Origin: Raillietiella orientalis
Lineage: Eukaryota
Direction of reading: 5' to 3'
Assembly: GCA_036172245.1 (NCBI GenBank)
Contig: JAYWIR010000072.1
Coordinates: 62,001 to 126,000 of the forward strand
Length of the DNA stretch: 64,000 nt
This document shows positions 1 through 52,200 of the stretch, one piece after another. Positions within the stretch are counted from its first letter, which is position 1. Every line of letters starts with the position of its first letter. The position numbers and the translations under genes were made by a program. The notes under the pieces are model-generated. The model worked only from the letters and a program-made list of their open reading frames with translations, did not search any database and was not told the DNA's origin.

Positions 1-1561
1 TCGCGAAGAAGAGGTTGGCATCCATACTTCGCCCGGGAACAGCGTACGTCTGCTCCGAGCTAATTATGGAGTCTGCCACCTGTCCTAGACGCGAAGCCTA
101 CAGTCCAGCGATCAGCTTGGCGTCCGTATTCACGATTATGATCGGACGCCAATTGCCCAAGGATCTCAAGTCTCCTCCTTTCGGGAGGAGCCTCACACGG
201 GCTGACCGAAACGAGGCGGGAACGTCGCCTTCGTCTCGGATCAGCCCGGTCAACTAAAGCACCAGGGGTGCCAGCTCTGCCGTGAAACATTAAAAGATTT
301 CCGCAGGCAGGCCGTCCTCCCCTGGCGCCTTTCGCCTCTTGAGACTTTTAATACCAGCGAGAATTTCACCGGTAGAAAAAGGCTCGTCGAGGCTGATCTT
401 CTCCTCCTCCTTTATTGCCGGGGCTCCATCCGGGAGCAGGAGCCGCGAGACGTTCCGCTCTGGGGGTGCGCTAGCGTAGAGGGAGGAGTAATAACGTCGC
501 ACGAGGTGCCTGATCGCGGGTGGGGCGGATCGCTCCCGGCCCTGGTCGTCCAGCAAGCTGGCCGACCCGGATTGCCAGGCTTGGCGTTCGGCCCCGCTCG
601 ATATTCCGCGAGGCGACGGACATTCTGGGTCCTCTCGTACCGGCTGGCCTGTAGATAAGCCCGATGCTTCCGAGCCCCCTCCCCGAATCCGGGGGCAGGC
701 GGTGCAGCGGAAACTCCTCGCAGAACTCGCGGACCGAGGTCTTGAAGAGGTCCCAGTCTTGGAGACTGCGGTGGGTGACGCCTCTCAGGAATTCGCGAAG
801 GTGTTCTTTCGCACCTGAGAGCCGTGTCCAGTCCCCAGGCAGTCGCCACGCCCAGGACGGGGGTCCTTTGTCGCGCGGGCAAACCTCGGCGATGATCCTG
901 GAATGGTCCGACAGCGTCGACGCAACTTTTCCCCGTTTGCCGACCCGCGAGCACAGGTCGACATCCAGGAAGAAGTGATCGATGCTGCGGTCCATTCCCT
1001 CCGCGTCTGCCAACAAGTTGCGCGTGCGCATGGCAGCGCACAACTCGTTGGCCGTGCGTTCTTGTGCTTCGGGCTCACCTGACAGCAGACAGAGATTGAA
1101 GTCTCCAACTATCAGGTGTGCCTTCCGCACATTCGTGTCGGCCAGCCAATCGCGCTTCAGGGTTTCCAGCAGCCTGGTACGGTCGCTGTATCCCCCTTTT
1201 CCGCTCGAGGCGTACACTTTCGTGACGATCAATTCGATCGAGTCGGACCAGCTGAGAATCAGCTGACCGACCCGACCGTCGTCATCAAAGCGTACGCCCT
1301 TCACGGCAGCGTCGATGGCCGACTTGACGAAGAACGCGACCCCGCAGGTGTTGCGGGCGCCGCATCGCCAATGCAGTCGACTCCCCGCGATCGTCTTGAT
1401 TTCTTGCACGTCTGCCGAGGTGATCACGTGGATCTCCTGCAGCAGGGCCAGGTCGAAGTCGCGCAGGGTGTCGGACGTATCTCGTCTGTTGCCGTGGTCG
1501 CGCAGACCGTTGACGTTCCAATTGGCCACGCGGATTCGACGGCGACAGGCGAGCCCAGGTG
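1..1561 (-). pseudogene. ORF2 N-terminal part: APE endonuclease, linker and start of RT, frameshifted
   Basis: WNVNGL, LQEIH, GVAF, VYA, GDFN, IDH and SDH APE motifs; KAPGEDGLPAE; LPKGGDL..NWRPI on the minus strand. Confidence 0.9.
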
Positions 1562-3309
1562 TTATTCCTGGGAAATCGGCTGTGCGGCGTCCGCCACCTG
1601 TTGGGGCGGGACGCTAGGTGGAGGAGGAGGGACAGGTGCCTCTAGCACCTGGCCACCCTCTTCCATCGGTGACGGCGCGTCGGGTGATTCACCCTGAGGT
1701 GTGGTCGCGCCTACCTGATGGCCCTCCTCCATAGGGGTGGGCTCCTCAGGGTCCGCGACGGCAGGAGGGATTTCGCCCTTCTGCTCACCCTCCTCCATGG
1801 GGGTGTCCTGCTCGACGGCTTCCGCGCGTTGGAGCTCCCCCTCCGGGATTGCCACGCTGCCGGCGACTTCCTGCTTCTCCTCCTCGCTCGTAAAGGGGAG
1901 GCGCTTCCTCGGATTTTGGGACTTGCTTCCTGTCTTCCGGGGGGGTGCCTCCGAGGAGGCGGATGCACTTCCGGCTACCAGGTCGTACTCACCTGCGGAT
2001 GCCTTCTTCGGCGGAGCCGGCCTTCGCACGGCCTTGCGTGAGGGGTTCTCACACTCAGCCAGCGTGGCCGCGAGCTCCTCCGCCGCCTTCGCGAAGGCGG
2101 CGTCCTCGCCGGCGGCGAGCGCGTCGCGCGTCTCACCCTCTGTGTAAACAGAGGGTCCGCCGTCGCGAACCTCGGGCGCGGCGGAAGCGGCGAGTGGGGG
2201 CTCGTCGCCCCGGGTGGCAGCCTCGGGAACGCTGATGCGCTCCAGTGCTAGCACTCGCGGAGAGTTTTAGATCGCGGACCAGGTTTTTTCGCCTTCGCGA
2301 CCGACTTTTTCTCCGCCTTCTCTTGTGAACCCTTTTTGGGTTCTTTTCTGGCCTTTACCAGCGTCCATCCTTCTTCTTCGCCCGCGTCTTTCGCGGTTTT
2401 TTCCGCCGCTTTCTGGGTTGGAGGAGGAGGAGAAGGCTGCTGGGGCCGGCCATTTTCGCGATGAGGTCTTTCGACCTTATTCACCTTTTTCGCCTGTGCC
2501 TTTTTGGCAGCAGGTGGCACCGGGGTGGGGCGTTTAGGGCACACACGACGGACGTGTCCCTTTTCCCCGCACAAGTGGCACTCGATATTCGGGCTCCGCC
2601 TGCGCACATGCCCTACTGCATCGCAGTAGCCGCAATAGCGGGGTTTCCCCGCATACCAGAGGTCTACGGGCTCCTTCCCGACCTCCAGTTTGTGGCGTAA
2701 CCCAGCACCCTCGTTCACAGTGACACGCGCTGCTGCCTGGCCACCAAAGAGGCTGTTATAGCCGTCAAAAATGGTTGGCTTTGGCCACAGCGCGTGCACA
2801 TCTCCGTATTTTTTCAATTCCGCGTTCACCGCAGAGCGCGTCATGCGGTTCGTGATCCCCGTTAGATGGACCACTACGGAGCGGTCCATGCTAACGGGTA
2901 GGATCTTTCGGCCAGCCACATTCAGCGGGGTGTTGATGAGGCGCTGCGCTAGGGCTACCTCTTTGCAGACGACCTCCACGCGTTGCCACCCGCTGAGTAC
3001 GGCGAGGCCGTCAAGATCCTCCTCACGCACGGGGAATTCCTGTAGTGCCTTGCTAAAGGCACGCGCGGTGCGACCGTCGAACAGGTTTCCTACCTTATAA
3101 ACCAGGGATGGTTTATATCCGGAGGCCCTGTAGGCCGCTTGCTCAGCCAAGGTTTCCGCGCTCGGCGCAGCGACCATGGCGCTCCAGCTCCTCGTCTTGG
3201 GTGACAAGGGCGATTCCGGGGCGGGTGCCCCTGATTCTGTAGGTCGTGGGGGGGGGCTAGCCTCCCTCACGCCTACCTTCATCGTGGTGTCCTCTGGCAG
3301 CGATGCCAT
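1562..3309 (-). pseudogene. ORF1 (gag-like, CCHC zinc knuckles, acidic/Pro-rich tail), frameshift near 2250
   Basis: ORFs 2248..3339 and 1562..2254; YCGYCDAVGH and CHLCGEKGHVRRVC knuckles; PMEEG repeats in the tail. Confidence 0.85.
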
Positions 3310-3408
3310 CGGACACCAACGATGTGAAAAAGCACACACTGAACCAAAAAGCCGCTTTCCGCTGCTCGTTCGCGGAGCGCCCGAAAAACACGTCCGCTCT
3401 CGAGGAGA

Positions 3409-3888
3409 GGGATTTGGGGAGGGCCCGCGTAACGAAAGGTGCTATCTTCAGGCCCGACGTTACGCGAGAACCCCCGACATTCGCAGGTTAGCAGAGTATC
3501 GAGCGGCAGCCGAGAGGCAAGCCTGGCAATCCGGGTAGGCCAGCTTGCTGGACGACCAAGGCCGGGAGCACTCGGTTCCCGCTCAGAAACGCGGGATAGT
3601 GAGGAAATTTTACTCCTCCCTGTACGCCAGGGCGCCTCCGGAGCGAGACGTCTCACGACTTCTGCTTCCGGAAGGTGCTCCAGCCATCGGGGAGGAGGAG
3701 AAAAGAAACCTTGACGAGCCTTTCACGATGGACGAGATCCTCTCGGCCATCGGAAAGCTCAAGAGGCGGAAGGCTCCAGGGTAGGACGGCCTGCCCGCGG
3801 AGTTTTACCAAACTTTCGCGGCTGAGATTTCCCCCTGGTACAGCAACTCACCTTGCTGATGCGCGAAACAGGTGACGTTCCCACCTCG
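3409..3888 (+). pseudogene. ORF2 fragment (linker to RT domain 0) of a sibling family; host of element A1
   Basis: GFGEGPRNERCYLQARRY...LLDDQGRE...KRRKAPG*DGLP. Confidence 0.8.
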
Positions 3889-4323
3889 TCATAGCACTGA
3901 GCTCCTCTTCTTTCACATCGAGAGCGCGCATGCCTTTCGAAAAGGCGCGCGCGCACTCTAAGGAATAGAAATTGCCTACCTTGTAGAACAATGAGGGTTT
4001 GTACCCCTCCTCTACATATGCCGACAATTCCGCCGCGGCTGCAGGCGATAGCGCCGACACAGCAGCGCTCTACGCCCGCGCTGCAGCGGGTACCGATTCT
4101 GTGGGGGCGGATGCCCCAACCTCCATCGCCTCTGGGGGCGACGTTGCCGTCGCCCTTTGCCTCTCCATCGCCTCTGGGGGAGGCCTTGCCGCTGCCCCCT
4201 GGCCATCCCTGGTGGTCGCGTCAGGCATCGCTTCCTGATCGACCGCCGAGCCACACAACGCTTGCACTGTGGGAGACTTCCTGGCACGAGGAGCACCGAG
4301 AAAACACGTCCACACTTAGCACG
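3889..4323 (-). mobile_element. 5' end and ORF1 N-terminus of a family D/F-type element
   Basis: GGACGTG at 4305-4311 (-); GYKPSLFYKVGNFYS is homologous to the other ORF1 N-termini. Confidence 0.75.
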
Positions 4324-6537
4324 CGAGGCGGTCGACTGCGTAAACCAGAAGCTCCTCTTGTAGCTTCTGGAACTTCTTGGATTTCCGGCGCATCTTCTGC
4401 TTTACTTGCGCGCTAGCGGACGCCACCTGCTCACCTGTATTTCTATTAGCGGCTGCCGTATGTACGGTGTTCTTGTAGGCACAGGCATTCGATAAGGTGA
4501 AACCTTTAGCTTCTTACTCTTCAGCACCTTCTTTTTGTTGGTGCTTGGAGCATACAGGCTCACGCTGCCTCACTTGCCAAGCTCCTGCCCGGGAACGTCT
4601 GCCGTGGCCGCCTCAGCTGATGACCTGCTTCTTCTGCTCCTTATGTCCACCCTGGCGTCCAGTGTCGAGGATTTCCTCGACCTGATTTGTCGGGGAGCGG
4701 GCGTGAGCGGAAACAGAGAGAAGAGCGTGGTCGTTCCTGTGGGTATGTCGAGGGATGGGTAGTCCGACTGGATCCGCCTAGGGATCCCCACGGGAGGGTA
4801 CTTTAAGTACCTTGGCGTTCCGTTGGGCGCTCTGGGCGCAGCCGAAACTCTGCTTTTCTGGAGACAGCTGTACTGTCTCCAGAAAGCAGAGTTGGTCATC
4901 AACCCGTTCTTTAACGGCAAGTTTCCCTTGCAGGAACGGGCGACTATTTGGAACACCTTTGTGGCCCCCCTCTTCCTTTCCCTGTTTTTTGTTTTAAACA
5001 CCCCTATGCGGCGAAAGAGAGGGCTACACGCCTGCTGAGGGACGCTCTCTGGGGTCCAACAAGATCCAGGATCCGCCTTAAAGATTTGTTAGCTCCGCGT
5101 CGGGATGCTGGTTTGGGTATCTTGACAATGGAGCGAATCGGACTGCAGGTGCAGTTCCGACTGCTGGCACTGTGTGCCCAGCTATGGACATCCCCCCTGT
5201 GTGTGCCAGCCCGCATTCTCCTACGGAGATGCACCGGCAGCGGAAAACTGCTCTCGCTTTTGCCGAGCACCTAGTACAAGAAGTGAGGTTTCGGGTTTCC
5301 ATTGCGGCAGTTGACCGCACTTCTGGAAGCTCACTCGTGGATCTCCTGACGCCCAATGAACTTTGAAGCTTGGCGGAAGGAGTCTGTCGAATCCTGAGCA
5401 GCGTTCCAAGGAATGCGCTCTGAAGATCTTTGCTTACTGCGGCATCTCCTTCCGCGATCTTTGGAAGAAGAACTGCAGGACGTGGTGAAGTTTTCTACCC
5501 TGGCTGCCACGCTTCTCACCGCAGAGCTGTCTGCCCTCAGGGCAAGAAACGACAGTTACCAACCGGCGAGGTGGGAGGTTTGCTGCTCGATAGCGGGGAA
5601 AACAAAACTCCTTGGCGCCTAGAAGACGAGTGATTTGGCGGACGCCGCCACTTTTAGTTGTACTTCAAAGGGACTTCTCCGGTGGGCAGAAGAACTTGCT
5701 GTCACCCCCGAAGAACTTGTAGTCCCTTTACAGTGTGTAGACAGTTCGCTGCTCCCCCGTGCTTAAAAACAAGCCGTGCGTTTTATCGTTCACTGGGGTT
5801 TTCAGTGCAACGAGGGTTGCTTTCGATACTCCTAGGGAGTTGCATCTGCCTACTGCGTCCGGTGCTGGTCGACGGAGTCGATTCCGCACCTACCTCTGAA
5901 CTCCGTTGTCCTACAAGGACTGTAGCGTAGGCTGGCAACAGCACTAATGCATCCCGTGGACACGGCAAGAGACTTGCTGCGACGATTCTTCACGCCGAGC
6001 GGGCTGTCCCTAAGCGCAAGGATTGCAACCATCGGTTGCATACGCGCGATAGTTTCGGTCCGCCAGGCGTTGGTAATCAACAACCAGCATCAAGAGGTAA
6101 TCAGCAAAACATCCTTTTACATGGAAGCATATGCTAGATGGCCTCATTTGACAGAGGAGACCAGAAGGAATCTCGCCGCAATACACCGCCGGTTTACACA
6201 CCCTCAGCAGCGGCCAACCCGGTGATCATTGTCCTACCCTCCATAAACTAATTTTGTATTTTCTTTTTACACCCGCGTCCCCATAGGCTCCGGAACATTT
6301 GAGGTGCTCATCGTTTAAATCCCCGTGAGTACGGAGCCTAACCAAAAACCCTTTTCCCTTCTCTCCAGTTTTTGATTTTTGTTTGTTTCCCCTCATTCCC
6401 CCACGCTGCGAGCGGTTTGTTTACCAGGCCTGCGTGCCGGTAATTTTTTTATGTTCGCTGTCGTTCTGTTGGTTGAGGACATTGTCCCTGACCAGTTTAT
6501 TATTATTAATGAACGCCCCGGCGTGACCGGGTGATAA
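4324..6537 (+). mobile_element. 3' half of a family C element (RT from the KAFD motif, C-terminal domain, 3' UTR, terminal hairpin)
   Basis: Collinear with 21515-23718; many stops and frameshifts; ends in AATGAACGCCCCGGCGTGACCGGGTG. Confidence 0.85.
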
Positions 6538-6880
6538 ATTTCAATCTCGGTCTGCTAACAGGTGAGCCAGAAACACAAGAGGACGCGATGAACCAGTTGT
6601 GCGCCGCCATGCGTGCGCGCAACTGGTTCGCAGGTGACAGAGGAATGGTCCGCAGCATCGACCACGTCTTTTTCGACGCTGACCTGTGTTCACAAGTCGG
6701 CAAACGGGGGAGGGTTGCGTCGACGTTGTCGGACCAATCCCGGTTAATTTTCGAGATGTGGCCTCGCGACCAAGGACCGCCATCCAGGGATTGGCGTCTG
6801 CTGGGGGACTGGACGCGACTCTCAGGTGCGAAGGAACACCTTCGCGAACACCTTAGAGGCATCACGCTCCGGAATCTCCA
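6538..6880 (+). pseudogene. Host ORF2 fragment: APE C-terminal half from (D)FN to TLRNL
   Basis: FNLGLLTGEPE...SIDHVFFD...LSD; paralogous to 23719-24061. Confidence 0.8.
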
Positions 6881-6962
6881 TTCAAACCCGGGTGCGCCGG
6901 GACGTTTATTCTCACGGATAAACCTATACAATCTGTGACTGCACCAGTAGTCTGGACCAGTA
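6881..6962 (-). mobile_element. 3' tip of a family F element
   Basis: Terminal hairpin motif at 6886-6910 (-); matches 24062-24135. Confidence 0.75.
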
Positions 6963-6974
6963 GTAAAATCGTTT

Positions 6975-7765
6975 ACCAACAGAAGAAGAAGGAGCAGGGT
7001 AGCGCGATAATTAAAGAGTGCAGCGTCGTTGTCGAACGCGTTCTCGATGCTGCCGAACGCTGCTGAAAAGAACTCGCCGCTACCGACGACCTCCTTTCTC
7101 TTGACACAGTCAACAGCGAGGGAGGCGAGCCGGCGGCGGCGTCCGTCATCGACACCACCATCGAAGACGTAGCCTTCGCGCGAGCCGCGGAGGAGCTGGC
7201 ATTTTCCTTGCAGCCAGAACCCTCCAAGGCTGGCAAGAAGGACGTAAGGCGTCCGGCCTCCCCTCAGGAGTCCCCCACTTCCGACCCCGAGGTGGAGGCG
7301 GGAAGCGCAGCCTCCGTTTCCACGGCACCGCGCAAGAAGGCTGGACGTAAGTCCACAAAGCCAAGGAAGCTCGTCTCCCCCCTCTAAGGGGAGAGATGGC
7401 TTCCGCAAGCGAGGGTGCCATGAGCGTGGGAAACTCTCGGGAACCGTCGTCCGAGAGACTCCCAGGCGCGGACATGGAGGAGATGGAGGGGGTGGAGGCC
7501 GAACAGGTGCCTCAGGTGCCTGGGAAGGCCGAAACCACCATGGACATCCCGCCCGCCTTGCAAGAGGAGGGTTCCCCCACACCTTAATCTTCCCAGCAGT
7601 AATGCCGGGAATCTCCTCCCGCCGTCGTATGCGCATCGCCGTTTGGAACGTCAACGGCATGACAGACGCCGGCAGGAGACGAGACATGGCCGCCCTTCTG
7701 GAGTCCTACGACCTTGCGCTGCTGCAGGAGATCCACGTGATCTCTGCAGAACAAGCGCAAGAGAT
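6975..7765 (+). mobile_element. Family D fragment: ORF1 C-terminus, TAATG junction, start of APE
   Basis: TAATG at 7600-7604, then MPGISSRRRMRIAVWNVNG...LQEIHVIS. Confidence 0.8.
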
Positions 7766-10700
7766 TTCTCACCCGGTCACGCCGGGGCGTTTATTCCACA
7801 TAACATAACATAAAAAAGCAATTATACAAAATAAACCAGTTCGAAACCAAACTCCCAACCGACAACTGGACAACAATGAAGAGAATATTGCTGGCACGCA
7901 GGCCAGAGTAACAGGTTTGTGGACGGTGTGGGGGGCGGAAAACACATAGAAACCAAAATAAAATAAAAAAAAATGAATAAGGAGGACGGGATAAGGGTCT
8001 TTGGGTTTGCTCTGGAAAACAGGGGGATAAAAGCATGGGCATTGGAAATTTTACCGAGCGAACGGGGACGGGGTATGAGTGGGCGAGAGGTCGCAGGGGT
8101 CACCGAATTACGCCGTTCTCAAAGGTTTGTAAACCGGCTATGTATGCCGGTGATGTCCTCATTCACCTTGTCACGAAGATGAGACCACCTTGAAGCCTTC
8201 CTCATGAATATAGCTGCAAGCAGGTGAGCCTCCCTTCGCTGCGCTGACAACTCCAGGGCGTAGCGGGCCGTCACGATGGCGCGAACGCAACACATGGTTG
8301 CGACAATCGCGCCAACCGAAAGTCCATTTCTGCTGAAAAAGCGCCGCAGCACATGAATGGCAGTGCCTCCTTGTGGCATAATGGCCGAAGTGGGCCTTCG
8401 CCACAGTTCCCGGAGGTCAACGCAGTCCAGCAAAAGGTGCGGAAAAGACTCGATCTCTCCGCACCTCAAACAGTTTGGCAAAGCAGCTCCCCCGGAAACG
8501 ATGCTTCGCTGTCTATTACAGTGTAATGCACAATGTAAAATAAGCAGCACATCTTGTTTCCACTTGAGGGAAAACACTGAGCTGTCCAAACAAACGGGGA
8601 GATCCACTATCTCTCCGTGGGGCACACTTAAATGTTCGCTCTGCCGATGCAGACCCTTCGCCCGATTCCGAGGTGTGGAGGCTTGAATCAGTTCCTTTGA
8701 CGTCCAGCTGCCGAGGAGCTTACTGACTCCCGCTATTTTGCAGGAGAACTCCTATTCCGTCGGTAGGCAACCGTCGTTGCTTGCCCTGAAAGCAGACAGC
8801 GCTTCGGCGAGTGGTGTGGTGGCCAGACGATCCGACAACTTCTTGTCCTGCATGAGTTCGTCCATTTGATGACTGAGGAGAAGTCGCAGGCGTCGAAGAT
8901 CTTTCGGCCGCGTTCCTTTGGAAGCTGCCCACGATGAAAAAGATTCCAGCCGCCATGCATTAATGTTCATGGGGCGGCAGGAGATCCAGCTTTGGGCTTC
9001 CAGCAGTGAGGACAGCTGCCTCAGCGGGAAGGCAAACCCTATTCTGGTGTGCCGAAAGTGGGGTAGCAACGAAAGCAGTCCCTCGCTTCCCGTGCAGCGC
9101 CTCAGTATAAGGCGTGCGGGTAAGCACCACGGCGTACACCACAGCTTAAAACAGAGCCGCAGCATGCGGAACTGCACCTGCAGTTCGATGCTGTTTACGT
9201 CGAGGATGCGCAAGCCTGCATCCAGACGCGGCGCCACCAAATCTTTAAGTCTAACACGGGATCTTATAGCGCCCCACAACGCTTTGCGTAGAAGGCGCTG
9301 CGTTCAGAATTTGACTTCCTGGGGGGGTGGACAAACAGCAAACAGAAGGGGGAGGAGGGGGGCAACGAAGGTGTTTTAGATACAGGCTCGTTCCGGCAAG
9401 ACGAACTCGCCTCCTGAAAACGGGCCAAGTGCACGCTCTGCCTCCCGAAGGCAGTCCGACCACGCTTCTGAGATGCAGAAGTCGCCGAACGGCACGCCAA
9501 GGTACCTGAGGTACCTGTCCGCGGGAATCCCCAGGTCGATCCAGTCGGACTGCCCCTCCCACGTCGTACCCACCGGAACAACCATACACTTACTCCTGTT
9601 AACGCTCACGCCCGCACCGCGACGAATCAACTCAAAGAAGCCTTCAAGCGATGTTGCCGGGGTGGACATAGGCAACAGGAGAAGCACGTCGTCGGCATGG
9701 GCTGCCACGGCCGGCGTACCTTGACAGGAGCTCGGCAGGTTGGCTAGCGTCAGCCTGGAAGCCACCAGCACCAATTCAAAATAGATGCTGAAGAGCAGTG
9801 GGCTTAAGCTGTCACCCTGCCTAATTCCTCGTCCTAACGGCACGCCGTACACGCGACAGCCACTGAAAACAATAGTTGTAATCGCGTGGCGCCAGCAGGA
9901 GCGCAAGTATGCCAACAGGGATGCCGGAAGACCCAGAAGTTCCAAAAGCTCAAGAAGAAGCTTTTCGTTCACGCAATCGAAAGCTTTGTGCAGATAGCCT
10001 GCAACCGTCAAGGCTCCCGGTGTCTCCCTTGGCGTCCCGCGCCTCCTTCGGTGAGAGATCAAAGGCGTTGCTTCCGCACGACGATCCACCGCCACACGAT
10101 GCTGCAATTGCAGCCATGCGCTGATGAACAAGAGATTCGCGTTCATGGACCGCCTAGGAACAGTGTTCGTCTGCTCCGGACTTACCAAGGATACCGCGAT
10201 CCTACCCATCCGCGCCAACCAAAGTTTCGAGAACAACTTGACGTCCGAATTTACTAATGTGATCGGACGCCACTTGTTCAGTTGGCGCAAATCTCCCCTT
10301 TTCGGCAGAAGACGCACCTTCGCTAAGCGAAACGAGGCGTGGACATCGCCCCAGTCTCGCATCAGCGACGAGAGTTGGAGCACTAGGGGAGTGAGCTTCG
10401 CCGAAAAACACTGAAAGAATTCCGCGGGGAGCCCATCTTCGCCTGGCGCTTTTCGTCTCTTGAGCCCCGAGATGGCCGAGGAAATTTCCTCTGCCGTGAA
10501 GGGCTCATTGAGACGCGCGCGTTCCTCCTCGTCTACAACAGGTGCATCGATCGGCAGAAGCAGCCGGGAGAGGTTGCGTTCCGTCGGTACCTCTGCATAC
10601 AGAGAAGCGTAATAGCGCCTGAATAATCGTCGCTCGTCGGTTGGAGCCGAGCATTCCCGGTCCTGGTCGTCAAGCAGAACTGTCGCATCTGACTGCCAGA

Positions 10701-11102
10701 CGTGGCGCTCGCCCTTGGCCTTGTACTCGGATAATCGACCAACGTCCGCGCGCCTGGAAAAGGAGCGGGCCTGCAGAAAATCTCTGCTGTCTGCTACGCC
10801 CTCTCCGAAGCCGCGCGGAAGCTGGTGCGAGCGAAACCGGCAGCAGAACTCGCTTACTGATCTTTTCAGATCCTCCCAGTCCTCGAGCTTACTTATGGCA
10901 AAGCCGAAGAGGTACTGGCGAAGCTGTTCAGCCGCCTCCGGGTGGCTTAGCAAGTCTACCGGCATCCTCCAAAAACAGTTTGGAGGCCCCTTGCTTGGCA
11001 GCAGCAACTCGAACTCGAGCCTGTTGTGGTCTGAAAGCACGGACGGCACGGGACCTCTCCGACCCACTCGACAGAGCAAGTGTTCACCAAGGTATACGTG
11101 GT
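7766..11102 (-). mobile_element. Family E copy 1: ORF2 from the end of APE through RT and CCHC domain, 3' UTR, terminal hairpin
   Basis: ORF 9376..11229 has KAPGEDG, WRPITL, HKAFD, GIRQGDSLSP, AHADD and YLG; CLRCGEIESFPHLLLDC; 3' motif at 7770-7795 (-). Confidence 0.9.
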
Positions 11103-16235: not shown

Positions 16236-16239
16236 TACC

Positions 16240-16760: not shown

Positions 16761-16764
16761 CTGG

Positions 16765-34735: not shown

Positions 34736-34744
34736 GGCTGCTTC

Positions 34745-35670: not shown

Positions 35671-35674
35671 CGCA

Positions 35675-36360: not shown

Positions 36361-36411
36361 GTGACGGTGATCCGCGCGGAGGCTTGTCCGATGTGGAGAA
36401 GTTGGACAGTG

Positions 36412-39400: not shown

Positions 39401-40028
39401 CTCACTTCGGCCATCATGCCACAAGGAGGCACTGCCATTGATGTGCTGCGGTGCTTTTTCAGCAGAAATGGACTTTCGGTTGGCGCGATTGTCGCAACCA
39501 TGTGTTGCGTTCGCGCCATCGTGAAGGCCCGCTACGCTCTGGAGTTGTCAGCGCAGCGAAGGGAGGCTCGCCTGCTTGCAGCTCAATTCATGGAGAAGGC
39601 TTCAAGGTGGTCTTATCTTCGTGACAAGGTGAATGAGGACATCACCGGCATAGATCGCCGGTTTACACACCTTTGAGAACGGCGTAATCCGGTGACCCCT
39701 GCGACCTCTTGCCCACCCATACCTTGTCCCCGTTCGCTCGGTAAAATTTACAATGCCCATGCTTTTATCCCCGTGTCTTCCAGAGCGATCACAAAGACCC
39801 TTATCCCGTCCTCCTTATTCATTGTTTTTATTTTATTTGGTTTCTTTGTGTTTCTCGCCCCCCCACTCCGTTCAAGAAACTGTAACTCTGGCCTGCGTGC
39901 CAGCAATTTTCTCTTCATTCTTGTTCAGTCGTCGGTTGGGAGTTTGGTTACCAACTGGTTTTTTTTGTATAATTGCTTTTTTTGGTAGTGTTATATGGAA
40001 TAAACGCCCCGCCGTGACCGCGTGAGAA
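36412..40028 (+). mobile_element. Family E copy 3 (linker, RT, CCHC, 3' end), interrupted by J at 36469-37149
   Basis: ATVLLDDHDLECSAPVEV resumes as PVGVRRIVRGYY; ORF 37109..38656 has the RT motifs including YADD; 3' motif at 39999-40024. Confidence 0.88.
36469..37149 (-). mobile_element. 5'-truncated family J element with 12-bp TSD (1 mismatch)
   Basis: TCCAGTCGAAGT (36457-36468) vs TCCAGTCGGAGT (37150-37161); CVECGERETFPHLTLEC; 3' motif at 36473-36498 (-). Confidence 0.85.
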
Positions 40029-41916: not shown

Positions 41917-43831
41917 ACGCTCCAGAGCCTTTCGCACTGGGAACTCTTCAAGGCCTCGGTCCGGGAGTTCTGCGAGCAGTTCCCCTTGGACCGCCTGCCT
42001 CCCGGATTCGGTGAGGGTCTTCGCAACCATCGGGCCTATTTACAGGCTCGTAGGTACGAGAGAGCTCCTAATGTCCGTCGCCTGGCCGAGTGCCGCACCG
42101 GGGCCGAACGCCAAGCCTGGCAATCCGGGTCGGCCAGCTTGCTGGACGACCAGGGCCGGGAATGTTCGTCCCCGGCGTTCGTACGGCATCTCGTGCGGAG
42201 TTTTTATTCCTCCCTTTACGCCAGGGAGCCCCCGGATCGAGACGCCTCTCGGCGCTTGCTTCCGGATGGCGCCCTGGCAATAGGGGAGGAGGAGATGGAA
42301 AGCCTAGACGAGCCTTCTACCACCGGCGAATTTTTCGCCGGTATTAAAAGGCTCAAAAAACGTAAAGTTCCAGGGGAAGACGGCTTACCTGCGAAGTTGT
42401 TTCAGAGCTTCGCGGATGAGCTGGCACCCCTGATGCTCAAGTTGATCAGGCTGATTCGAGACGAAGGCGATGTTCCCGCCTCGTTTCGGTCAGCCAGAGT
42501 AAGGCTCCTCTTGAAAGGGGGAGACCACAGAGATTTAAAGAACTGGCGTCCGATTATGATCGTGAATACGGACGCCAAGTTAATATCAGGGCTATGGGCT
42601 TCGCGTCTGGGACAGGTGGCAGAGTCCACCTTGCCGGTGCGAGGGACTTACGTCTTTTCTTCTGTGCCCCGGCCGGAAGATCAGAAGATGCGGCCTAAAT
42701 CTCGGGCGCATGGCATCTTCGGCCATGCAAAACAGCTGGATGGTTTGCTGCCCCGCCAACTCCCCCGCCTGGCTGGAGGAAAATATTGGAACATGGGCAG
42801 TGGTAAAACAGAGAAGCCACGTAACGTGGAATCGTCTCCGATGCGGCCCCTACGCCCGCTGCACTCTGAGGAATCTCCTGGAGAGTCCAGCTAGAAGCAC
42901 GTGAGCAGAGACTACCTGCCTGGCTACGGCGCTGCCCTTCCTGAGGAGGGCGCTTCACAGCAGTCAGACGCCAAGGTGGCAAGTCTCCTGCTGCATCAAG
43001 GGACGGGAGAAGAGAATGAGCGGCTAAACCTTGGATCAACTGGCGTACGCCACGATTTTGAGCGTCCAGTCGCGAGGATTAAGATGGGGCGAGCTGCTGG
43101 CCATCCCTGTGGATGTGCTGAAGTGGCTCCCGCTTCTTAGGGAATCCAGGGTCCTGGCCCTTAAGTGGAAGGAGTCGGCGTTGTTGTTGTTGCATTGGGG
43201 TTTACCCTGCAACGCACGCCGCTCTCACTGGACAAGAGGAGTTGTGGATCCTGTGTGTGTCAGGTGCGGAGAGCGGGAATCGCTCTCCCACCTTATTGTG
43301 GATTGTGCTGCCCTCCGTCCCCTTTGGGAACGTTTCGGGACGACCCTCGGTCTGCCTACGGACAGTTCCCCTAAAGACGTTCTTCGGCTTCTCTTCGTGA
43401 AGGACGCCCTGCAGCCAGCAGCAGCCCTCGCAGCCTTGTGCTGCGTCCGAGGCATCGTAGCGGTATGGAGCGACAGCAACAAGGAAGGAGTGTGTCAGCA
43501 AGCGAGGGATGTCATCCCATATGCCCAACGCTTCTTGCGGAGCTGCTGGATGGCCCCAACTGGGGAATATACGGATAGACCTCGAGGGCTTCCTTCAACG
43601 GATGGGCCCTCCTTTCAGCGAACAGTGATCCCTTTCCTGCCCTGCAACCTCTTTGTTTGTTTGTGGTTTTGTTTTTTTACTTTTGTTTTTTCCCCATCTT
43701 CTTTCGCTGCCGGGGAGTGCCACGCCGGGCTGCGTCCCGGCGTCCCGGTAGGTCCCGTGCATATGGCCGTGAGCGGGGCCTGGTACCGCAATTGTAGAGC
43801 TTTATTAATAAACGGTGTACCCGGGTGGCAA
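41917..43831 (+). mobile_element. A-type ORF2 (linker to 3' end) with a large internal deletion near 42630
   Basis: LPPGFGEG..KVPGEDG..NWRPI, then a jump to the C-terminal domain CVRCGERESLSHLIVDC; 3' motif at 43807-43827. Confidence 0.8.
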
Positions 43832-44235
43832 CACCAAATCCCCGGGGCAGGCAGTGCACAGAGAACTCCTCGCAGAACTCACGGACCGAGGCCTTCATGC
43901 GGTCCCAGTCTTGGGGATTCCGGAGGAAGATGCCTCCCAGTACTTGGCGGAGATCTTCTGCCGCACCTGAGATGCGCGTCCAGTCCCCGGGAAGACTCCA
44001 CGCCTTGCATGGTGGTCCTTTGTCGCGAGGCATAACCTCGAATATCAACCGGAAATGGTCCGATAGCGTCGACGGAAGTTCCCCCCGTCTGCCGACCCGT
44101 GGGCACAGGTCGGCGTCAAGGAAGACGTGGTCTACGCTTTGGACCATTTCCGGTATTTCCTTCAACATGTTGAGCGTGCGCATAGCAGCGCACATCTCGT
44201 TGGCTGCGTCTTTTTGCCCGCAAGGCACAGCTAAA
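43832..44235 (-). pseudogene. Host APE C-terminal/linker fragment ending at LPRGFG
   Basis: SVDHVFLD..LSDHFRL..EEFSVHCLPRGFG. Confidence 0.8.
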
Positions 44236-44259
44236 AGCAGGGACGCGGTGAAGTGTAAG

Positions 44260-44836
44260 GCCTGAATGTGCCAGGTGTGGAGAACGGGAATCGCTCACCC
44301 ACCTACTCGTTGAATGTGCTGCCCTCCGACCTAAACGGGAACGGATTGGGACGATGCTCCGGCTCATAATGGGCAGCGCGCCCAAAGACGTTCTTCGGCC
44401 CCTCTTCGTGCGGGACGTCTTGCAGCCCGCCGCAGCCCTCGCAGCCTTCTGCTGCATTCGGTGCATCGTGGCGGCCTGGAGCGACATTCGCGACGAAGGA
44501 GTGGATGCAAAGAGAGGGATGTCATCCCTTATGCGGTCTGCTTCATGCGGAGAGCTGCGAGATGGCCCCAACTGGGAAGCATGCAGAAGGACCTAGAGGG
44601 CATCCTGCAAAGGATGGGAACTCCCTCCAGTGAATTGTGATCCCTTGTTCCTTCTCCAAACTCTTTTTGTTTTTCTTCATTTTTATTTTTATTTTGTTTT
44701 CTCTACCATCCCCCTCCACTGCCGAGGAGCGTCACGCCGTCCCGGCAGGTCCGGTGTTGTGTGGCCGTTAGTGGAACCTAGTACCACGTGATGTAGAGTT
44801 TTTTAAATAAACGCGCCGGACGTACCCGGGTGGCAG
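44260..44836 (+). mobile_element. 3' end of a second A-type element
   Basis: C.RCGERESLTHLLVEC; UTR similar to 43620-43831; 3' motif at 44806-44832. Confidence 0.8.
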
Positions 44837-44982
44837 CCCCGAATCCCCGGGACACGCGTTGCAAGGGGAACTCCTCGCAAAACTCGCGCACCGAGGCCTT
44901 AAAAAGGTCCCAATGGTTGAGTTGTCGGAAGGTGACGCCTCTCAGGAATTCGCGAAGGTGTTCTTTCACACCTGAGAGTCGC

Positions 44983-45145
44983 GTCCATTCCCCAGGCATA
45001 CGCCACGCCCTGAATGGTGGGCCCTTGTCGCGCGGGCACACCTCGAATATCAACCTGAAATGGTCCAGTCCCCAGGCAGACGCCACGCCCTGAATGGGGG
45101 GCCCTTGTCGCGCAGGCACACCTCGAATATCAACCTGAAATGGTC
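44983..45145. repeat. 80-bp tandem duplication inside the APE/linker region
   Basis: CCCAGGCA.ACGCCACGCCCTGAATGG...CCTCGAATATCAACCTGAAATGGTC occurs at 44991 and 45071. Confidence 0.9.
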
Positions 45146-45591
45146 AGAAGGCTCCGACGCAACTTTACCCGGTTTGCCGACCCTTGAGCACAGGTCGACG
45201 TCCAGGAAGACGTGGTCGATGCTGCTGACCATTTCCGGGAGATCCCCTAACAAGTTGCGCGTGCGCATTGCAACCCACAACTCGTTAGCCGTCCGTTCCT
45301 GTGCGCGTGGCTCACCTGATGGCAGTTGGAGGTTGAAGTCTCCCACCATCAGGTGAGTCATGCGCACGTTCGCTTCCACCAGCCAGTCGCGCTTCAGGAT
45401 TTCCAGGAACGCTTTACGTTTCTGGAACATGGCAGGAACGCTAGGGGTGTACACGTTTGTCACGACGAGGTCGATCGTCTCGGACCATCTGAGAATCCGC
45501 TAGCCGACACGACCGGCTCCGTCAAAGCGCACGCACTTCACGGCAGCGTCGATGCCGGCTTCATAAAGAATGCGATGCCACAGGTTGGCGG

Positions 45592-46304
45592 AACAGTGGA
45601 TCCCTCCCCCTGAAATGGCAGGATGTGGCGTTGCTTGTGGTCCTCTGGGGACTTCCATTCAAAGCACGCCTTCATCACGCAACCCGGGGGGCTGTGGATC
45701 CTTATTGTGACCGGTGAGGGGAAAAAGAGACCTTCCCCCACCTTCTCATCGAGTGCAGTGCCATCCGCCCTTTATGGGATCGCCTTACGGCGATCCTGGA
45801 CTTGCGCGGATGCGGCCCTAAGGACGTTTTTAGGCTCCTCTTCCGTAGTGACGCCTTGTCCCCCCCTCTTCTGTAGCAGTCCTCTGCTGCATTCGAGGGA
45901 TCGTGGCGGCTTGGAACGCCACCAGAAGAAGAAGTCAGCCAACCGGCAACGCCTTACGGTTCACTCGCCTATTCGTCCGAGACGTCTGCAAGTGGCGCCA
46001 CTTGGGCGCAGAGAGGACTCAGCTTGTACGGATCCTAAATAGGATCTAGAGGACCTATCCGCGCGCACGGTGATCCTCTCCCTGCCCTCCCATTCCCGAA
46101 ACATTTGCTCCCTCCCATACTTCAACTATTTGTTTGTTTTTTGTTTTTTTTCTTTCCCAACCCCCGCGGATCGGATGGACCTCTCCGGCATAGCGCCGGT
46201 AAATACCAAGCTGTTTTGTAGTGGTGGACCTTTGGGTTCAACACGCGACAATCCACTGTCATTTTATTCTTTTGAATAAATGCCCCGGCATATCCGGGTG
46301 AAAA
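45592..46304 (+). mobile_element. 5'-truncated family I element with perfect 13-bp TSD CACAGGTTGGCGG
   Basis: TSD at 45579-45591 and 46305-46317; LKWQDVALL..WGLP..ETFPHLLIEC; 3' motif at 46275-46300. Confidence 0.88.
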
Positions 46305-48350
46305 CACAGGTTGGCGGGCGTCGCATTCCCACAGCAGCCGCCCCCTTGCGATCCTCTCCATCTCCTGGACGTCCGCCGCGGAGATCACGTGAATCTCCTG
46401 CAGCAGGGCCAGGTCGAGCTCACGCAGAATGTCGGCTGTATCTCGCTGCTACCGTCGTCGCGCAGCCCGTTGACATTCCAACAGGCCGCGCGAATCCGAC
46501 GGCGACTGGCGAGCCCAGGTGTTAATCCTGGTAAAGTGGCGATGCGGCGTCCGCCACCTGCTAGGTGGGACAATAGGTGGAGGAGGGTCAGGTGCTGAAG
46601 GCACCTGGTCGCCCTCCTCCATGGGTAACGGCGCGCCGAGCGGTTCACCCACAGGTGGGGTCGCGCCTACCTGTTGGCCCTCCTCTATGGGGACGGGCTG
46701 TTCAGGGTCGGCGACTGCAGGGGGAATTCACCCCCCTGCTCACCCTCCTCCATCTGGCTGGCCGGCTCGGCGGCTTCCGAGCGTGGGAATTCCTCCTCCG
46801 AAGTTCCCACGCTGGCGACGGCTTCAGTCTTCTCGCTGATGGAGGGGAGGCGCCTCCTGTGCTTCTGGGACTTGGGTCCCGACTTCCTGGGGGGTGCCTC
46901 GGAAGAGAAGGATGTACTTCCGGACCCCAGGTATAACTCACCTGTGAGGGCCTTCTTCGCCGGAGCCGGCCTTTGCACGGCCTTGCGCGAGGGGTTCTCA
47001 CGCTCGGCCAGCGTGGCCGCCAGCTCCTCCACTGCTTGCACGAACGCGGCGTCCTCGGCTTTGTCCGCGCGTCGCGCGGCTCACCCTCTGTGCAAACAAA
47101 TAATTCGCAAGCGCGAACCTCGGGCGCGGCGGAAACGGCGAGGGGAGGCTCGTCACACCGGGTGACAGCCTCGGGAACGCTGACGCGCTCCAGTGCTACC
47201 GTGCACTCGCGGACGGTTTTTGAGAGCGGTATAAGTTTTTACGACTTCCCGGCCGTCTGTCTTTCCGCCTTTTTCTCCTTTCTCTCTTGAGGCCCTTTTT
47301 TGGGCTCTTTCCTGGTTTTAAGCAGCTTGCATCTCTTCTCCATTCCTGCGTCCTCTGGAGTTTTTTAATCCGACGCCTGTTTGGTAGGAAGAGGAGATGC
47401 CAGCTGGGCCACCCAGTTTCACGTTGCGGTCTTTCGACTTCTTGGCTTTCTTTGCCTGCGCTTTTTTGGCAGCGGGCAGCACCGGGGTGGGACGTTTAGG
47501 GCACACACGACGAACGTGTCCTTTGACCCTGCTAAGGTGGCACACAATATTCGGGCACCGCTTGCGCAAGTGTCATTTCAGTAGGCACAGTAACGGGGTT
47601 TGCCCACGAACCAGAGATCGACGGGTTCATTCGCAACCTCTAATTTGTGGGGTCAGTCACCACCCTCTAAAGGTGACACGTGCTGCAGCCTAGCCACCGA
47701 AAAGACCATTATAGCCTTCGAAAATCGTTGGCTTCCGCCACAATGCGTGCACTTCTGCATGCTTTCCTGACTCATCACCAGCCGCTGACCGCGTCATGCG
47801 GCTGGTCATTCCCGTAGGATGGACCACTACAGAGCGGTCCATCGTCACCGGCAAGATCTTGCGACCATCCACCATCAGCGGGTCGGTGATCAGGCGTTGA
47901 ACCAAGGTGATATCCTTACATACAACCTCGACCCGCTGAAAACCGCTGAGGACGGAGAGGCCGTCAAGATCTTGCTCCAATATGTTTGCAGACTGCAGTG
48001 CCTTCGTGAAGGTACGTTCAGTCTTGCCATCGAACAGATTGCCTACCTGATAGACAAGCGATGGCTTGTATCCGGCGGCCCTTTAAGCGGCTTGTTTAGC
48101 CAGAGTTGCCACGCTAGGCGCGGCAACCATGGCGCTCCAGCTCCTCGCCTTCGGCGGCGAAAGTGATTCCGGGGCGGACGCCCCTGACTCTGTAGGCTGT
48201 GGGGGTGGACAAGCCTCCCCCACACCTACCACCATCGTGGTGTCCTCAGACAAGAATGCCATCAGACACCAACGATGTGCACTATACACCACACACAATG
48301 AAACCCGCTTCCTGCTACTCACTCGGGAGCGAAGGGAAAACACGTCCGCC

Positions 48351-50725
48351 TGGCGGTGGCAGGGGGAGGCAATGTCCTACCTGCTCCCCATCCTCCATGG
48401 GGTCGGCCAGCTGCTCGGTGGCAAAGGGTGGGAAAATCCCTCCCTCCGTTCCCACGCTGCCGGATTCCCCCTCGGCTGCCGGTGCGTCCCCCTCCTTCTT
48501 CGTCAGGATGCGCCTTTTTGGATTCTTGGACTTCCACCCAGTCTTATTCGGAGGCGCCTCTGCGGGGGAAAACACTTCCGGCATCCGGGTCCTGGTCACC
48601 TATCAGAGGTGCCTTTCTTGCGGCCGGCCTTCGCAAGGCCTTTCGCCCGCCGTTCTCACGCTCCGCGAGTTCGGCCGCGAGCTCTTCCGTCGCCTGCTCG
48701 AAGGCGCCGTCCTCGATTGCGGCGAGCGCGTCGCTTGGCTCCCCTCTGTTTGCACAGAGGGTTCGCCTTCCGTGATTGCGACTCCGGCGGCAACGAGGCG
48801 GGCGATATCTCCCACGGTGGCGGTCTCGGGTACCTCCACGCGCTCCAAAGCGACCGAACATTTGCGGAGCAAAGCGCGGCGTTGCCTCCTATTCAAAGGA
48901 GTTGTCGCGGGTTCCGCTGTCGGTTCTTAGGTTTTTCGAATTTTTTTGCTTTTCGGCTCCGCCTTGTGCCATCCCTTGCTCCCTGCAGCGTCGTCGAAAT
49001 TTTCCTTGACCGGCGATTGCAGGGAGCATTGGGATTCTGGCTTTTTGCTTAGCCTTTCCTTTGACTCTGTAGGGTTATTTGTTTTCTCCACGCGTTCCCC
49101 CTTACCTTTTTTCAAGGCAGAGGGCGCTAGAGTTTCAGGCTTTCGGCACACTTTCCTGAGATTGCGATTCTCCCCGCATTGGAAACACTGGATGTGAGGG
49201 CACCTTTTTTTCAGCTGCCCTGTTGCATCACAGTGCCCACAGTGGGCACTGTGAGTCAAGAGCTCTTCCGCCGCCTGCTGGAAGGCAACCTCGTCGATAG
49301 CGGCGAGCGCGTCACGCGGTTCCCCCTCTGTTTGCACAGAGGGTTCGCCTTCCGTGATCGCGTTATCGTCGGCGTCGACGCGGGGGATATTTCCCCCGGT
49401 GGCGGTCTCGGGTACCTCCACACGCTCCAAAGCGACCGAACATTCGCGGATCAACGCGCGGCGTTGTCTCCTATTTAAAGGAGACGTCGCGGGTTCCGCT
49501 GTCGACCCTTCGGTTTTCTTAATTTTCTTGGCTTTAGGCTTCGCCTTCTGCCAGCCTTCGCTCTTTTCAGCGTCGTCGGTAGATTCCACGACCGGCGTTT
49601 GCTGCACGGGCTCAAGCTCCGGCTGTGGGTTCCGTCTCACGGGTGCCTTCGCAGGCTTTTCCGTGGCCCCCGCGCGTTTCCCTTTGGCCTTTTTCAAGGC
49701 AGCGGGAGCCAAGGGTTCGCGCTTCGGGCACACTTTGCGGAGGTGGATCTTCTCTCCACAGTGGAAACACTGGATGTGAGGGCACCGCTTTTTCAGGTGC
49801 CCTGTGGCATCACAGTGTCCACAGTACTTGGGCTTGCCCACGTACCAGACGTCGACGACCTCGTTGCCGACATCGAGTTCATGGGGCAGTTCACCGTTTT
49901 CGTGGACGGTCACGCGCTGCAGCCATGCCACTGAACAGTCTTCCGTAACTTTGGAAGATGTTCTGCCTGGTCCATACCGCGTGTACCGTACCCAATTTAC
50001 TTAATTCCTCCTTTACGCCGGTTTTTGACATGCGGAGGGATACTCCCGTATGATGCGCTACCACAAAGCGATCCTCGTTTACAGGGAAGACCATTCTGCC
50101 TTCCAGCATGAGGGGGTATTCAGCAGACGTTCAACCAGGCTTGCATCTCTGCAAGTGAGCTCCACCCGCTGGCCCTCACTGAACACTAAAAGACCTTCCA
50201 GTTCCTACTCTTTAACATCTAGTCGCTGCAATTTCCTCTCGAAATTGCAGGCAATATTACCAACAAACAGATTTCCTGCCTTGTAAATCAAGGACGGCTT
50301 GTATCCTTGTTCCAGGTAGGCGCGCTGTTCTGCTACTGCCCAGGAGATGGCGCTGCAACCACGGAGCTCCAGGTCTTTTGTCGCAGCAAACGGATCCAAT
50401 GACTCGCTTATCCTTTTTCAAGGGAACGGTTGCACCCTATTTCCCAAAGGGCCTTTACCCCTTTTTCAATGGAGCATTTGCCCTCGCTTCCGTGGGGGCA
50501 GTTGCCTCCTTTTTCAAGGTTGCCGTTGCCCCCTCCTTTTTGGGTATGGCTGCCCCCACCTGCGTGGGTTGGGAAGAGGAACAGGCCCTTCCCCTTCCGA
50601 TCTCCATCGCGGTGTACTCAGGCATTCCTGCCATGGGACACCGACGATGCACCACTCACAAACACACTAAAGAAAAAGTTTCGCAAACTTCTGCGGCAGG
50701 AGCGCAGAAAAAACACGTCCGCACG
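48351..50725 (-). mobile_element. Family H 5' end and ORF1, with the knuckle-containing segment present twice
   Basis: GGACGTG at 50714-50720 (-); GYKPSLIYKAG; CGHCDATG.LKKRCPHIQCF.CG occurs twice. Confidence 0.8.
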
Positions 50726-52200
50726 CCTCCCTGTAAGCAAGAACGCCTCCCGCGCGGGATGTATTACGACTTCTGGTTCCGGAAGGCTCTCAAGCGATCG
50801 GGGAGGAGGGCAAAAAGTTCCTCGACGAGACTTTCGCGATGAGCGAGATCATCTTGGCCATCGGCAAGCTTAAAAGGCAAAAGGCTCCAGGGGAGGACGG
50901 CCTGTCCGCGGAGTTTTCTCTAACTTTCGCAGCTGAGCTTACTCCCCCGGTACAAATCACCCTGCTCATACGCGAAACAGGTGACGTTCCCGAGTCGTTT
51001 CGTTCGGAAAAGGTGCGGCTCCTCCCTAAGGGAGGAGATCTGATGAGCATGAACAACTGGCGTTCCATCACAATAGTGAATGCGGATGCCAACTGAAATG
51101 CTAAAATTTAGGCTGAGCGCCAGGGACCGGTTTCATACGCCTCATTTAGCCCGGAACAAACATATGGTGTTCCCGAGCAAAACGTGGACGCTAACCTGTC
51201 CCACGCTTCCACTTGCTTGCATCTCCAACATGGAAGGGGCTTGATTCGCAGCCGGAATTCTGGTGAGTCCGTCAGCCATGGTTCCGATGGTCGGGTCAAA
51301 GAGCCCTTGCGGTCGCAATCGACTTGCGAAAAGCATTCGATTGCGTCGACCAGAATCTCCTTCTGGAGCTTCTGGAACTCTCGGTCTTCTTTGCTTCAAT
51401 ATTGGCCTATCTGCGCTTCAGCTGGCGCGACGCGCTAAATAATCTTACTTTCAGCGTGCAAACCGTGCATGGAGTGCCGGTACAGCGTGCGATACGGCAA
51501 AAAGACAGCCTTAGCTCCTTGCTCTTGAGTTCCAACTTTAAGTTTATACTGAGAGCGTAGAGGGAACCTCTAGCGCACTCGCCGCTCGACTGCGTCGGTA
51601 TACCTGCGCTTTCGGCATATGCGGACGACCTACTTCTGCTGCTCCCTATGTCCACCCCGGCTTCGGAGGTCGAGAAGTTCTTCGACCTCCTGAAACGAGG
51701 AACCGGGCTTACGGTGAACAGGGCGAAGTCGTCCGTGAGGCCAGTTGGTGCGGAGTGGGCAGGGCAGCAGGACTGGGCCCGTTTGGGGATCCCCACGGTG
51801 AGGTACTTTGAGTACCTTGGTGTACCATTGGGGTTCTATTCCCCTGCGGGACCGTGATCCGCCTGACTCTAGAATGTCCAGACGGCGATCGGCTTGTTAC
51901 AAGGCTGCAGGTTTTTCCTGAACGGTCTGCGGTTTGGAACACGTTCGCGGCTCGTCTCCTCTTTTCCCTACTTTTTGTTAGCGCACCCACTGAGCGAATC
52001 ATACAGCGGACGAAGGACCTCCTCATCGCCCTTTGGGGCAACGGGATGGCTCGAGTCCGCTTCAAGGCCTTGTGCGCTCCGCGTAGGAACGGTCGCCTCG
52101 GACTTCTAACATTGGAACAACTGGAGCTTTAGCTCCAGTTCCGTCTTCTGCTTGTTGTGCCGGAGTTGTGGTGCACCTGCTAGTGCGTTCCTGCGAGTCT
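50726..52200 (+). pseudogene. Degenerate ORF2 RT fragment (host of H)
   Basis: KAPGEDG, LLPKGGDL..NWRSI, RKAFDCVDQ, YADDLLLLLPM, YLGVP and GRLGLL. Confidence 0.82.

Follow-up and report, generated by a model that had tools for sequence, protein, structure and literature searches.

A nested array of L1-superfamily LINEs in which two sibling families appear to have reused single sites in ORF2

INTRODUCTION

Human L1 has a loose target specificity (TTTT/AA) and carries a long poly(A) tail. Two other described groups of long interspersed nuclear elements (LINEs) come closest to the organization reported here for a stretch of 64,000 nucleotides (nt) from Raillietiella orientalis (GenBank assembly GCA_036172245.1, contig JAYWIR010000072.1, positions 62,001 to 126,000 of the forward strand; hereafter, the window). 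Positions 1-52246 of this window are a nested array of degenerate L1-superfamily LINEs, inserted into one another.

The first group is the Tx1 clade. According to the portions of one report covered here (PMC4494074), families of this clade prefer sites in other transposons: Tx1L inserts into the Tx1D piggyBac element, crocodilian Tx1-Mar families into Mariner-N4_AMi, Tx1-9_AMi into Harbinger, and Tx1-8_Crp and Tx1-4_AMi into long terminal repeat (LTR) elements. Like these families, the elements of the window are LINEs of the apurinic endonuclease (APE) type with preferred sites inside other transposable elements and with targets that differ between related families, a likeness that concerns targeting behavior. 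The Tx1 targets in those portions are DNA transposons, LTR elements, small nuclear RNA genes and microsatellites, whereas the targets in the window lie in the second open reading frame (ORF2) of sibling LINEs.

The second group comprises Zepp of Chlorella and Coccomyxa and ZeppL of Chlamydomonas, whose GC-rich L1 LINE clusters are nested in existing copies, range from 1.5 to 42.3 kb in Coccomyxa and from 51 to 320 kb in Chlamydomonas, and each form a local GC peak (PMC8226300, PMC3446292, PMC9940879, in the passages covered). The same passages and a further report describe one or two families per genome (bioRxiv 10.1101/2025.03.28.645958). The array resembles these GC-rich nested clusters of L1-type LINEs in organization. 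Zepp and ZeppL clusters consist mostly of 5'-truncated 3' ends, whereas the array holds at least seven diverged families and seven canonical full-length 5' ends; nucleotide-precise, family-specific sites are not described for Zepp or ZeppL in the passages covered.

The array combines Zepp-like nesting with Tx1-like site specificity, the latter for two families. The nesting is seen in a segment map with target-site duplications (TSDs), and the target-sequence preference in two families that each independently reuse one nucleotide position. An earlier note on this DNA had proposed more, namely that about nine sibling families each use a conserved site of their own within the ORF2s of the others.

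RESULTS

The GC content of the window is 53 to 62% as far as about 52.2 kb and 41 to 52% beyond. Long open frames in its GC-rich part match the Pfam domains Exo_endo_phos and RVT_1, indicating an ORF2 with an N-terminal APE-type endonuclease followed by reverse transcriptase (RT), together with a zf-RVT match below threshold (21.5 bits against a cut-off of 27.5). ORF1-like frames gave CCHC knuckle matches under the cut-off, and the translated ORF1 shows CX2CX4HX4C motifs. Stops or frameshifts break every copy. Among solved structures, human L1 ORF2p is the best match to the RT (PDB 8c8j, 8uw3 and 8sxt; E of 6e-32), R2 proteins being far weaker at 1e-9 or worse, and the endonuclease is closest to that of L1 (1vyb; E of about 1e-4). 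These matches place the elements with L1 in the class that nicks with an APE endonuclease and then proceeds by target-primed reverse transcription (TPRT); unlike human L1, they end in a hairpin and 4 to 6 A-rich nt and show site reuse. The closest matches in a large protein database reach no more than 31% identity and bear no clade name; relatives carry PF13966. A Protein Atlas search returned generic RT clusters only, and Rfam gave no match across the window. Since the RT and endonuclease are nearest to L1 and the database relatives are so distant, the comparisons support an assignment to L1-superfamily LINEs of an unsampled lineage.

As a coordinate axis we used the full-length element B (24720-30221; ORF1, 24772-26397; ORF2, 26367-29893), in which the motifs QEIHEIS, GDFN, SLQTL, KGFG, YSSLY, IAFD and YADD lie at 26523, 26856, 27186, 27270, 27486, 28113 and 28401, respectively. 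Common to the siblings are a 5' terminus, GCGGACGTGTTT, and a 3' end made up of AATAAA, a CCGG-N5-CCGG hairpin and the short A-rich tail, without a long poly(A). The 3' pattern recognized in the earlier note recurs 11 times in the window (0.06 expected), and a twelfth, degenerate end lies at 43807-43826. The hairpin is kept in seven of eight distinct ends, the eighth being without the 5' arm; none of its seven pairs covaries, and its consensus energy is only -3.6 kcal/mol. Only 8 of 26 loose matches to GGACGTGTTTT are genuine conserved 5' termini: seven inside the array (C, 17823; B, 24720; A1, 3410; D, 4324; F, 41917; A2, 48350; H, 50726) and an eighth at about 63700, in AT-rich DNA beyond it.

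The best evidence for site reuse in the window is the recurrence of the E family. In three copies (7765, 31908 and 40029) the junction falls at the identical nucleotide, after ..GAGAT of AQEI (..CAAGAGAT), 12 codons past QEIHVIS and with the insertion antisense to its host. We asked of each shared junction whether inserts and hosts are equally alike on its two sides. For copies 1 and 3, host identity in four windows is 69.7, 78.5, 79.8 and 77.0%, insert identity in six windows is 89.7 to 94.2%, and the step falls exactly at 7765/7766. Copies 2 and 3 behave likewise (host, 72.2%; insert, 87.8 to 94.8%), while copies 1 and 2 are borderline (host, 83.6% over 238 nt; insert, 86.8 to 92.4%). Because the inserts are more alike than their hosts, with a step at the junction, the comparison supports independent insertions at one nucleotide, with two events and possibly three; this argues against duplication, which we took the earlier note to have left open for E. 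On these identities, E would be a young family that went antisense into the same position of two or more distinct old hosts of the F type.

A second site was reused by the A family. The full-length 5' end of A1 (3410) adjoins GGATTTGGGGAG of host segment X1, and the 3' end of element P, also of the A family, adjoins ..GGATTCGGG of host A2 at 44837. These two junctions bracket the same 9 nt, GGATTYGGN (the RGFG codons), implying a 9-nt TSD; the inserted copies differ, the host families differ, and both insertions are antisense. The junction sequences thus support two independent events at RGFG among three A-family ends.

These segments belong to a map of 31 parts, drawn from tblastn of the axis element against the window and from self-blastn.

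A1, 1-3410, reverse: A family, runs off the left edge; full-length 5' end at 3410 adjoins host GFGEG (RGFG site)
X1, 3411-3888, forward: host ORF2 fragment, X family, axis 27273-27764, 81% identical to X2
D, 3889-4324, reverse: 5'-terminal 436 nt of a full-length element; 5' end at 4324 adjoins (K/E)AFD of C'
C', 4325-6538, forward: 3' half of a C copy; segmental duplicate of 21519-23719
hA', 6539-6880, forward: duplicate of host fragment P2, GDFN to TLRNL
F 3'-end duplicate, 6881-6952, reverse: copy of the terminal 72 nt at the 3' end of F
Fl1, 6953-7765, forward: F-like host, axis about 25800-26562, ends after AQEI
E1, 7766-11232, reverse: E family; 3' end at 7766, 5' boundary at about 11232 adjoins K
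K, 11233-16760, forward: distant L1-like lineage
P1, 16761-17822, forward: A-family host, axis 25942-26867, interrupted at GDFN by C
C, 17823-23719, forward: full-length, sense orientation, TSD ATTTCAATC (9/9)
P2, 23720-24061, forward: host P continued, axis 26859-27200, ends at TLRNL
F3, 24062-24719, reverse: 3' part of F; 3' end at 24062
B, 24720-30221, forward: full-length axis element (G of the earlier note), antisense in F at SALL, TSD 9/11
F2, 30222-31670, reverse: F from axis 29578 back to HKAFD (28107)
Fl2, 31671-31907, forward: F-like fragment of 237 nt, host of E2
E2, 31908-34732, reverse: E copy cut just past YASLY; followed by 20 nt of filler (34733-34752)
K3', 34753-36191, forward: 5'-truncated K copy, 89% identical to K
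O1, 36192-36415, reverse: ORF1 piece, C/E clade; probable upstream portion of E2
E3a, 36416-36468, forward: piece of E3 left of the G3' insertion
G3', 36469-37158, reverse: 5'-truncated insertion at SAPVEV (J of the earlier note), TSD 11/12
E3b, 37159-40029, forward: E copy; 3' end at 40029 antisense in F1 after AQEI
F1, 40030-41917, reverse: 5' part of F; canonical 5' end at 41917 adjoins host (T)LQSL
P3, 41918-43832, forward: rest of host P; own 3' end at 43832, antisense after RGFG
Y, 43833-44257, reverse: host fragment, RGFG back to GDFN; tandem duplication unit 1
A3', 44258-44837, forward: 3' fragment of an A element; tandem duplication unit 2
A2a, 44838-45584, reverse: A-family host, RGFG upstream; holds an 80-bp tandem duplication (44983-45145)
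G', 45585-46305, forward: 5'-truncated insertion at TCG (I of the earlier note), TSD 12/12
A2b, 46306-48350, reverse: A2 to its canonical 5' end at 48350; sense inside H, not at RGFG
H, 48351-50726, reverse: 5' untranslated region and ORF1 of another family; 5' end at 50726 adjoins YSSLY of X2
X2, 50727-52246, forward: X-family host, axis 27493-29033; 3'-truncated at the array edge, where GC drops

All 15 junction coordinates given in the earlier note proved to be real junctions at the host motifs it named, including that of H, which nucleotide alignment places at YSSLY. We had considered an H/X2 junction at APxEV, which would equal the G3' site; the alignment with segment X1 gives YSSLY instead. 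Four insertions are clean, with both flanks contiguous in the host, and their 9- to 13-bp TSDs, also described previously, are all present. Element C is inserted sense into the A-family host P at GDFN (ATTTCAATC), and the other three are antisense: B in F at SALL (GCAGCGACGAC/GCAGTGCCGAC), G' in A2 at TCG (CACAGGTTGGCG) and G3' in E3 at SAPVEV (TCCAGTCGAAGT/TCCAGTCGGAGT). For G3', one contig of public run X1 presents the empty site, joining 36465 to 37159 and skipping 693 nt (36466-37158). The TSDs and the empty-site contig uphold the reading of these four as true insertions.

Identity matrices for four regions divide the siblings into two clades, {C, E} and {A, B, F, X, D, G, G', H}, with nucleotide identity between families mostly 45 to 75%. 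Seven families (A, B, C, E, F, G and G') can be distinguished by the 3' region alone. D and H are seen only as 5' parts and X only as middle parts, all of which may belong to the seven; of the nine or so families proposed, at least seven are therefore demonstrated and nine is only plausible. G3' and G' have 26 identical nt at their 3' termini (36474-36498 and 46275-46299), the remaining 3' regions being only about 61% alike, which suggests that the terminal hairpin is strongly constrained or has been exchanged. Lineage K is distant (about 29% amino acid and 40% nucleotide identity to the siblings), has lower GC and its own ORF1 with CCHC knuckles, and is without the sibling AATAAA/CCGG hairpin end. 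Its two copies, one long and one 5'-truncated, have different right flanks.

Several repeated junctions collapse to duplications or single events, as the earlier note had cautioned that some might. Stretches 4326-6952 and 21519-24133 are 85 to 95% identical across C, host and F, without a step at 6538 or 6880. Such identity without a step indicates one segmental duplication; hence 6538 equals 23719 and 6880 equals 24061, leaving one C event and one F 3' junction. Similarly, 43201-44254 and 44213-45339 are adjacent, with insert identities of 77.4 and 77.7% and host identities of 77.6 and 75.8%; the insert of the left copy extends 5' and the host of the right copy extends upstream. Uniform identity and this flank layout, which a 1-kb tandem duplication predicts, make 43832 and 44837 one A event, although two events with an old, long TSD may be an alternative. 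Segments P1 and P2, to the left of F, and P3, to its right, behave as one A-family element that is 76 to 91% identical to A1; with no consistent step in that identity, we rejected the idea that C is flanked by two different hosts. The P pieces meet at axis 27186-27200, with a possible 13-nt TSD (10/13). On the simplest reading, the F 5' end at 41917 and 3' end at 24062 probably belong to one F insertion spanning 24062-41917, with later inserts and rearrangements; they may alternatively be two separate events.

The D site is also represented once. The D 5' end at 4324, a canonical one, lies beside the (K/E)AFD motif of C'. The break in F at 31670/31671 comes 3 nt upstream of the D-site position, and F is joined there to a 5'-truncated F-like fragment with no canonical end. 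As D and this fragment do not overlap, the fragment could be a 5'-truncated D-family insertion. In sum, family-specific ends at repeated positions stand for E and for A (3410 versus 44837), and not for C, F, the A pair 43832/44837 or D at 31671.

Fourteen independent events were counted (C, B, G', G3', F, P, A1, E1, E3, D, H, A2, K and K3'). In simulations of 14 events, two pairs of the same orientation lying no more than 3 nt apart arose with a P of 0.0014 when the target was 5.5 kb and 0.010 when it was 2 kb; ignoring orientation, the 2-kb target gave a P of 0.036. Our tally of about 30 breakpoints of all kinds yielded seven to nine pairs within 10 nt (1.66 expected; P <= 0.003), some of these breakpoints having been placed by fading homology and being softer than junctions defined by an element terminus. 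Besides E and A, breaks cluster within about 12 nt of GDFN (three: where C inserted, where the tandem duplication breaks in Y and where E1 meets K), at KAFD (two) and near YSSLY (two). Of 11 insertions of one sibling into another, nine run antisense to the host (two-sided P = 0.065), or 10 of 12 with E counted twice (P = 0.039), a bias for which we offer no mechanism.

Breakpoints at 44254-44260 and about 11232 (GDFN) and at 31670 (KAFD) lie within a few nt of the insertion sites of other elements, and segment X1 ends (3888) at axis 27764, 4 nt from a position at which a run X1 contig has a joint in an E copy (37466). Such breakpoints may be site-specific endonuclease breaks that were repaired without insertion. 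Other rearrangements are also evident. Host P has lost most of its RT through an internal deletion between axis 27938 and 29009 (42635-42651). The 80-bp tandem duplication in A2 has two copies that are 95% alike, and a run X1 contig has one copy fewer (joint 45066 to 45155). The filler between E2 and K3' repeats E2 sequence from close by in inverted orientation (CCGGCTGCTTCTG) and looks like a snap-back or template-switch footprint. As X2 is 3'-truncated where the array ends, the array edge is not a TPRT junction.

The flank (52247-64000) has lower GC and other RT-bearing repeats (RVT_1 at 53595-54164 and 61589-62152), as well as a 2.1-kb inverted repeat (55583-57699 versus 60668-58520, 83% alike). 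At 63696-64000, a sibling-type 5' terminus (CGGACGTGTTTCCGCGTCGCTCC) begins an element in AT-rich, non-array DNA that runs off the window; hence, not every relative sits in a sibling. In public data, run X1 contained 37% of the sampled words of 17001-27000, and 459 of its contigs aligned to 34790-54789, with 313 of these less than 90% alike. Runs X2 and X3 were uninformative, yielding no more than 7 and 22 short pieces of low complexity; relatives of the array were found in only one of these three runs under the same organism label. A metagenome scan for the 3' motif returned 33 loci, none of which was similar to the window by tblastn or blastn, indicating chance matches.

DISCUSSION

We consider it fairly probable that the array grew by TPRT-mediated nesting followed by later duplications and that at least two of its families have an endonuclease specific for one site in sibling ORF2. 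Sibling L1-superfamily LINEs would have been reverse transcribed into one another, and segmental, tandem and inverted duplications would later have copied some of the junctions. A and E would each encode an apurinic-type endonuclease with sequence specificity, nicking sibling ORF2 at one site. Element anatomy, termini, TSDs, duplications and the independent reuse of two sites can be read in the window itself; beyond these, we infer that the endonuclease would set specificity, that the shared 3' hairpin would be a recognition signal for the RT and that other families may be equally specific. For A and E, the family-specific and nucleotide-precise reuse of sites in sibling ORF2 is supported by the comparison of their inserts and hosts.

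Several observations weigh against this interpretation. Only two sites are replicated, with two events each. Conservation at the insertion sites does not significantly exceed the average (nine sites; mean, 0.61 versus 0.56; P = 0.08), so that the conserved sites of the earlier proposal reduce to a weak trend. The A-family 5' end at 48350 is away from RGFG and in sense orientation, an exception that the earlier note had recognized and that we confirm. G3' and G', with their identical 3' termini, occupy different sites, and the related 5' terminus at 63709 lies outside the array. For E, no TSD is readable in the window, the host does not continue on the 5' side of any of the three copies, and ectopic gene conversion among E copies that stopped at the element border could mimic the identity step. 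The joints 3888/3889 and 6952/6953 and the inverted filler at 34733-34752 are plainly rearrangements. For a check of the assembly, only 11 of the 459 run X1 contigs were at least 99% alike.

The proposal of the earlier note goes further: about nine sibling families, each with a conserved ORF2 site of its own, would form a self-growing network of partitioned mutual targeting. It is possible, though we lean somewhat against it. The demonstrable insertion of every family is at a different site, 9 of 11 insertions are antisense, A and E are replicated, and some Tx1 families are known to have other transposons as targets (PMC4494074, in the portions covered). There are also additional breakpoints 3 to 12 nt from the C site (the start of Y at 44254-44260 and the E1/K boundary) and at most 3 nt from the D site (31670). 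However, that each family uses its own site holds for A and E, while C, F, D, H, B, G' and G3' are each represented by one demonstrable event in the window; site conservation is only a trend, and the 5' end of A2 is off-site. Mutual targeting is thus shown in the window for two families only. We would propose only tentatively that siblings evolved endonucleases for different sites in their own ORF2s, mostly antisense, parasitizing and disabling one another in a self-growing array that spares host genes. Such an array may possibly be a centromere-like or other heterochromatic block.

It is also conceivable that the array attracts elements regionally, for example through chromatin in the manner suggested for clusters of the Zepp type, without sequence specificity, the repeated sites being due to duplication and chance. 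Three of the five repeated sites of the earlier note do reduce to duplications or a single nest, rearrangements and inverted and segmental duplications are abundant, and Zepp and ZeppL clusters nest in existing copies (PMC8226300, in the passages covered). Regional attraction is nevertheless unlikely given the sharp identity step at the E junction, the two different A copies at one 9-nt site and the simulated probabilities of 0.0014 to 0.036 for two such pairs. Very unlikely, finally, is an origin of the coincidences in recombination hot spots at conserved motifs, in homogenization of scattered E copies by gene conversion or in wrong joins where the assembly is rich in repeats. Conversion that ended at the element border and so imitated the step, the few closely matching contigs, the filler and the non-TPRT junctions (3888/3889, 6952/6953 and 31670/31671) could speak for it. 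Against it, the replicated junctions involve canonical termini rather than internal-to-internal joins, and the TSDs and the empty-site contig mark genuine insertions.

In the literature searched, which did not extend to target-site details of the original Zepp, we found no description of sibling LINE families that each have their own site in the ORF2 of the others. Target-specific LINEs serve as models for the specificity of APE-type endonucleases and are candidate scaffolds for site-directed integration. If our interpretation of the array is true, related families with 55 to 65% amino acid identity and different 9- to 13-bp targets would provide a natural series for mapping the determinants of specificity. 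Transposon families that use each other's coding sequence as a safe harbor would represent a new interaction in genome ecology, and site-specific insertion into siblings would offer a sequence-level mechanism for the growth of Zepp-like nested clusters.

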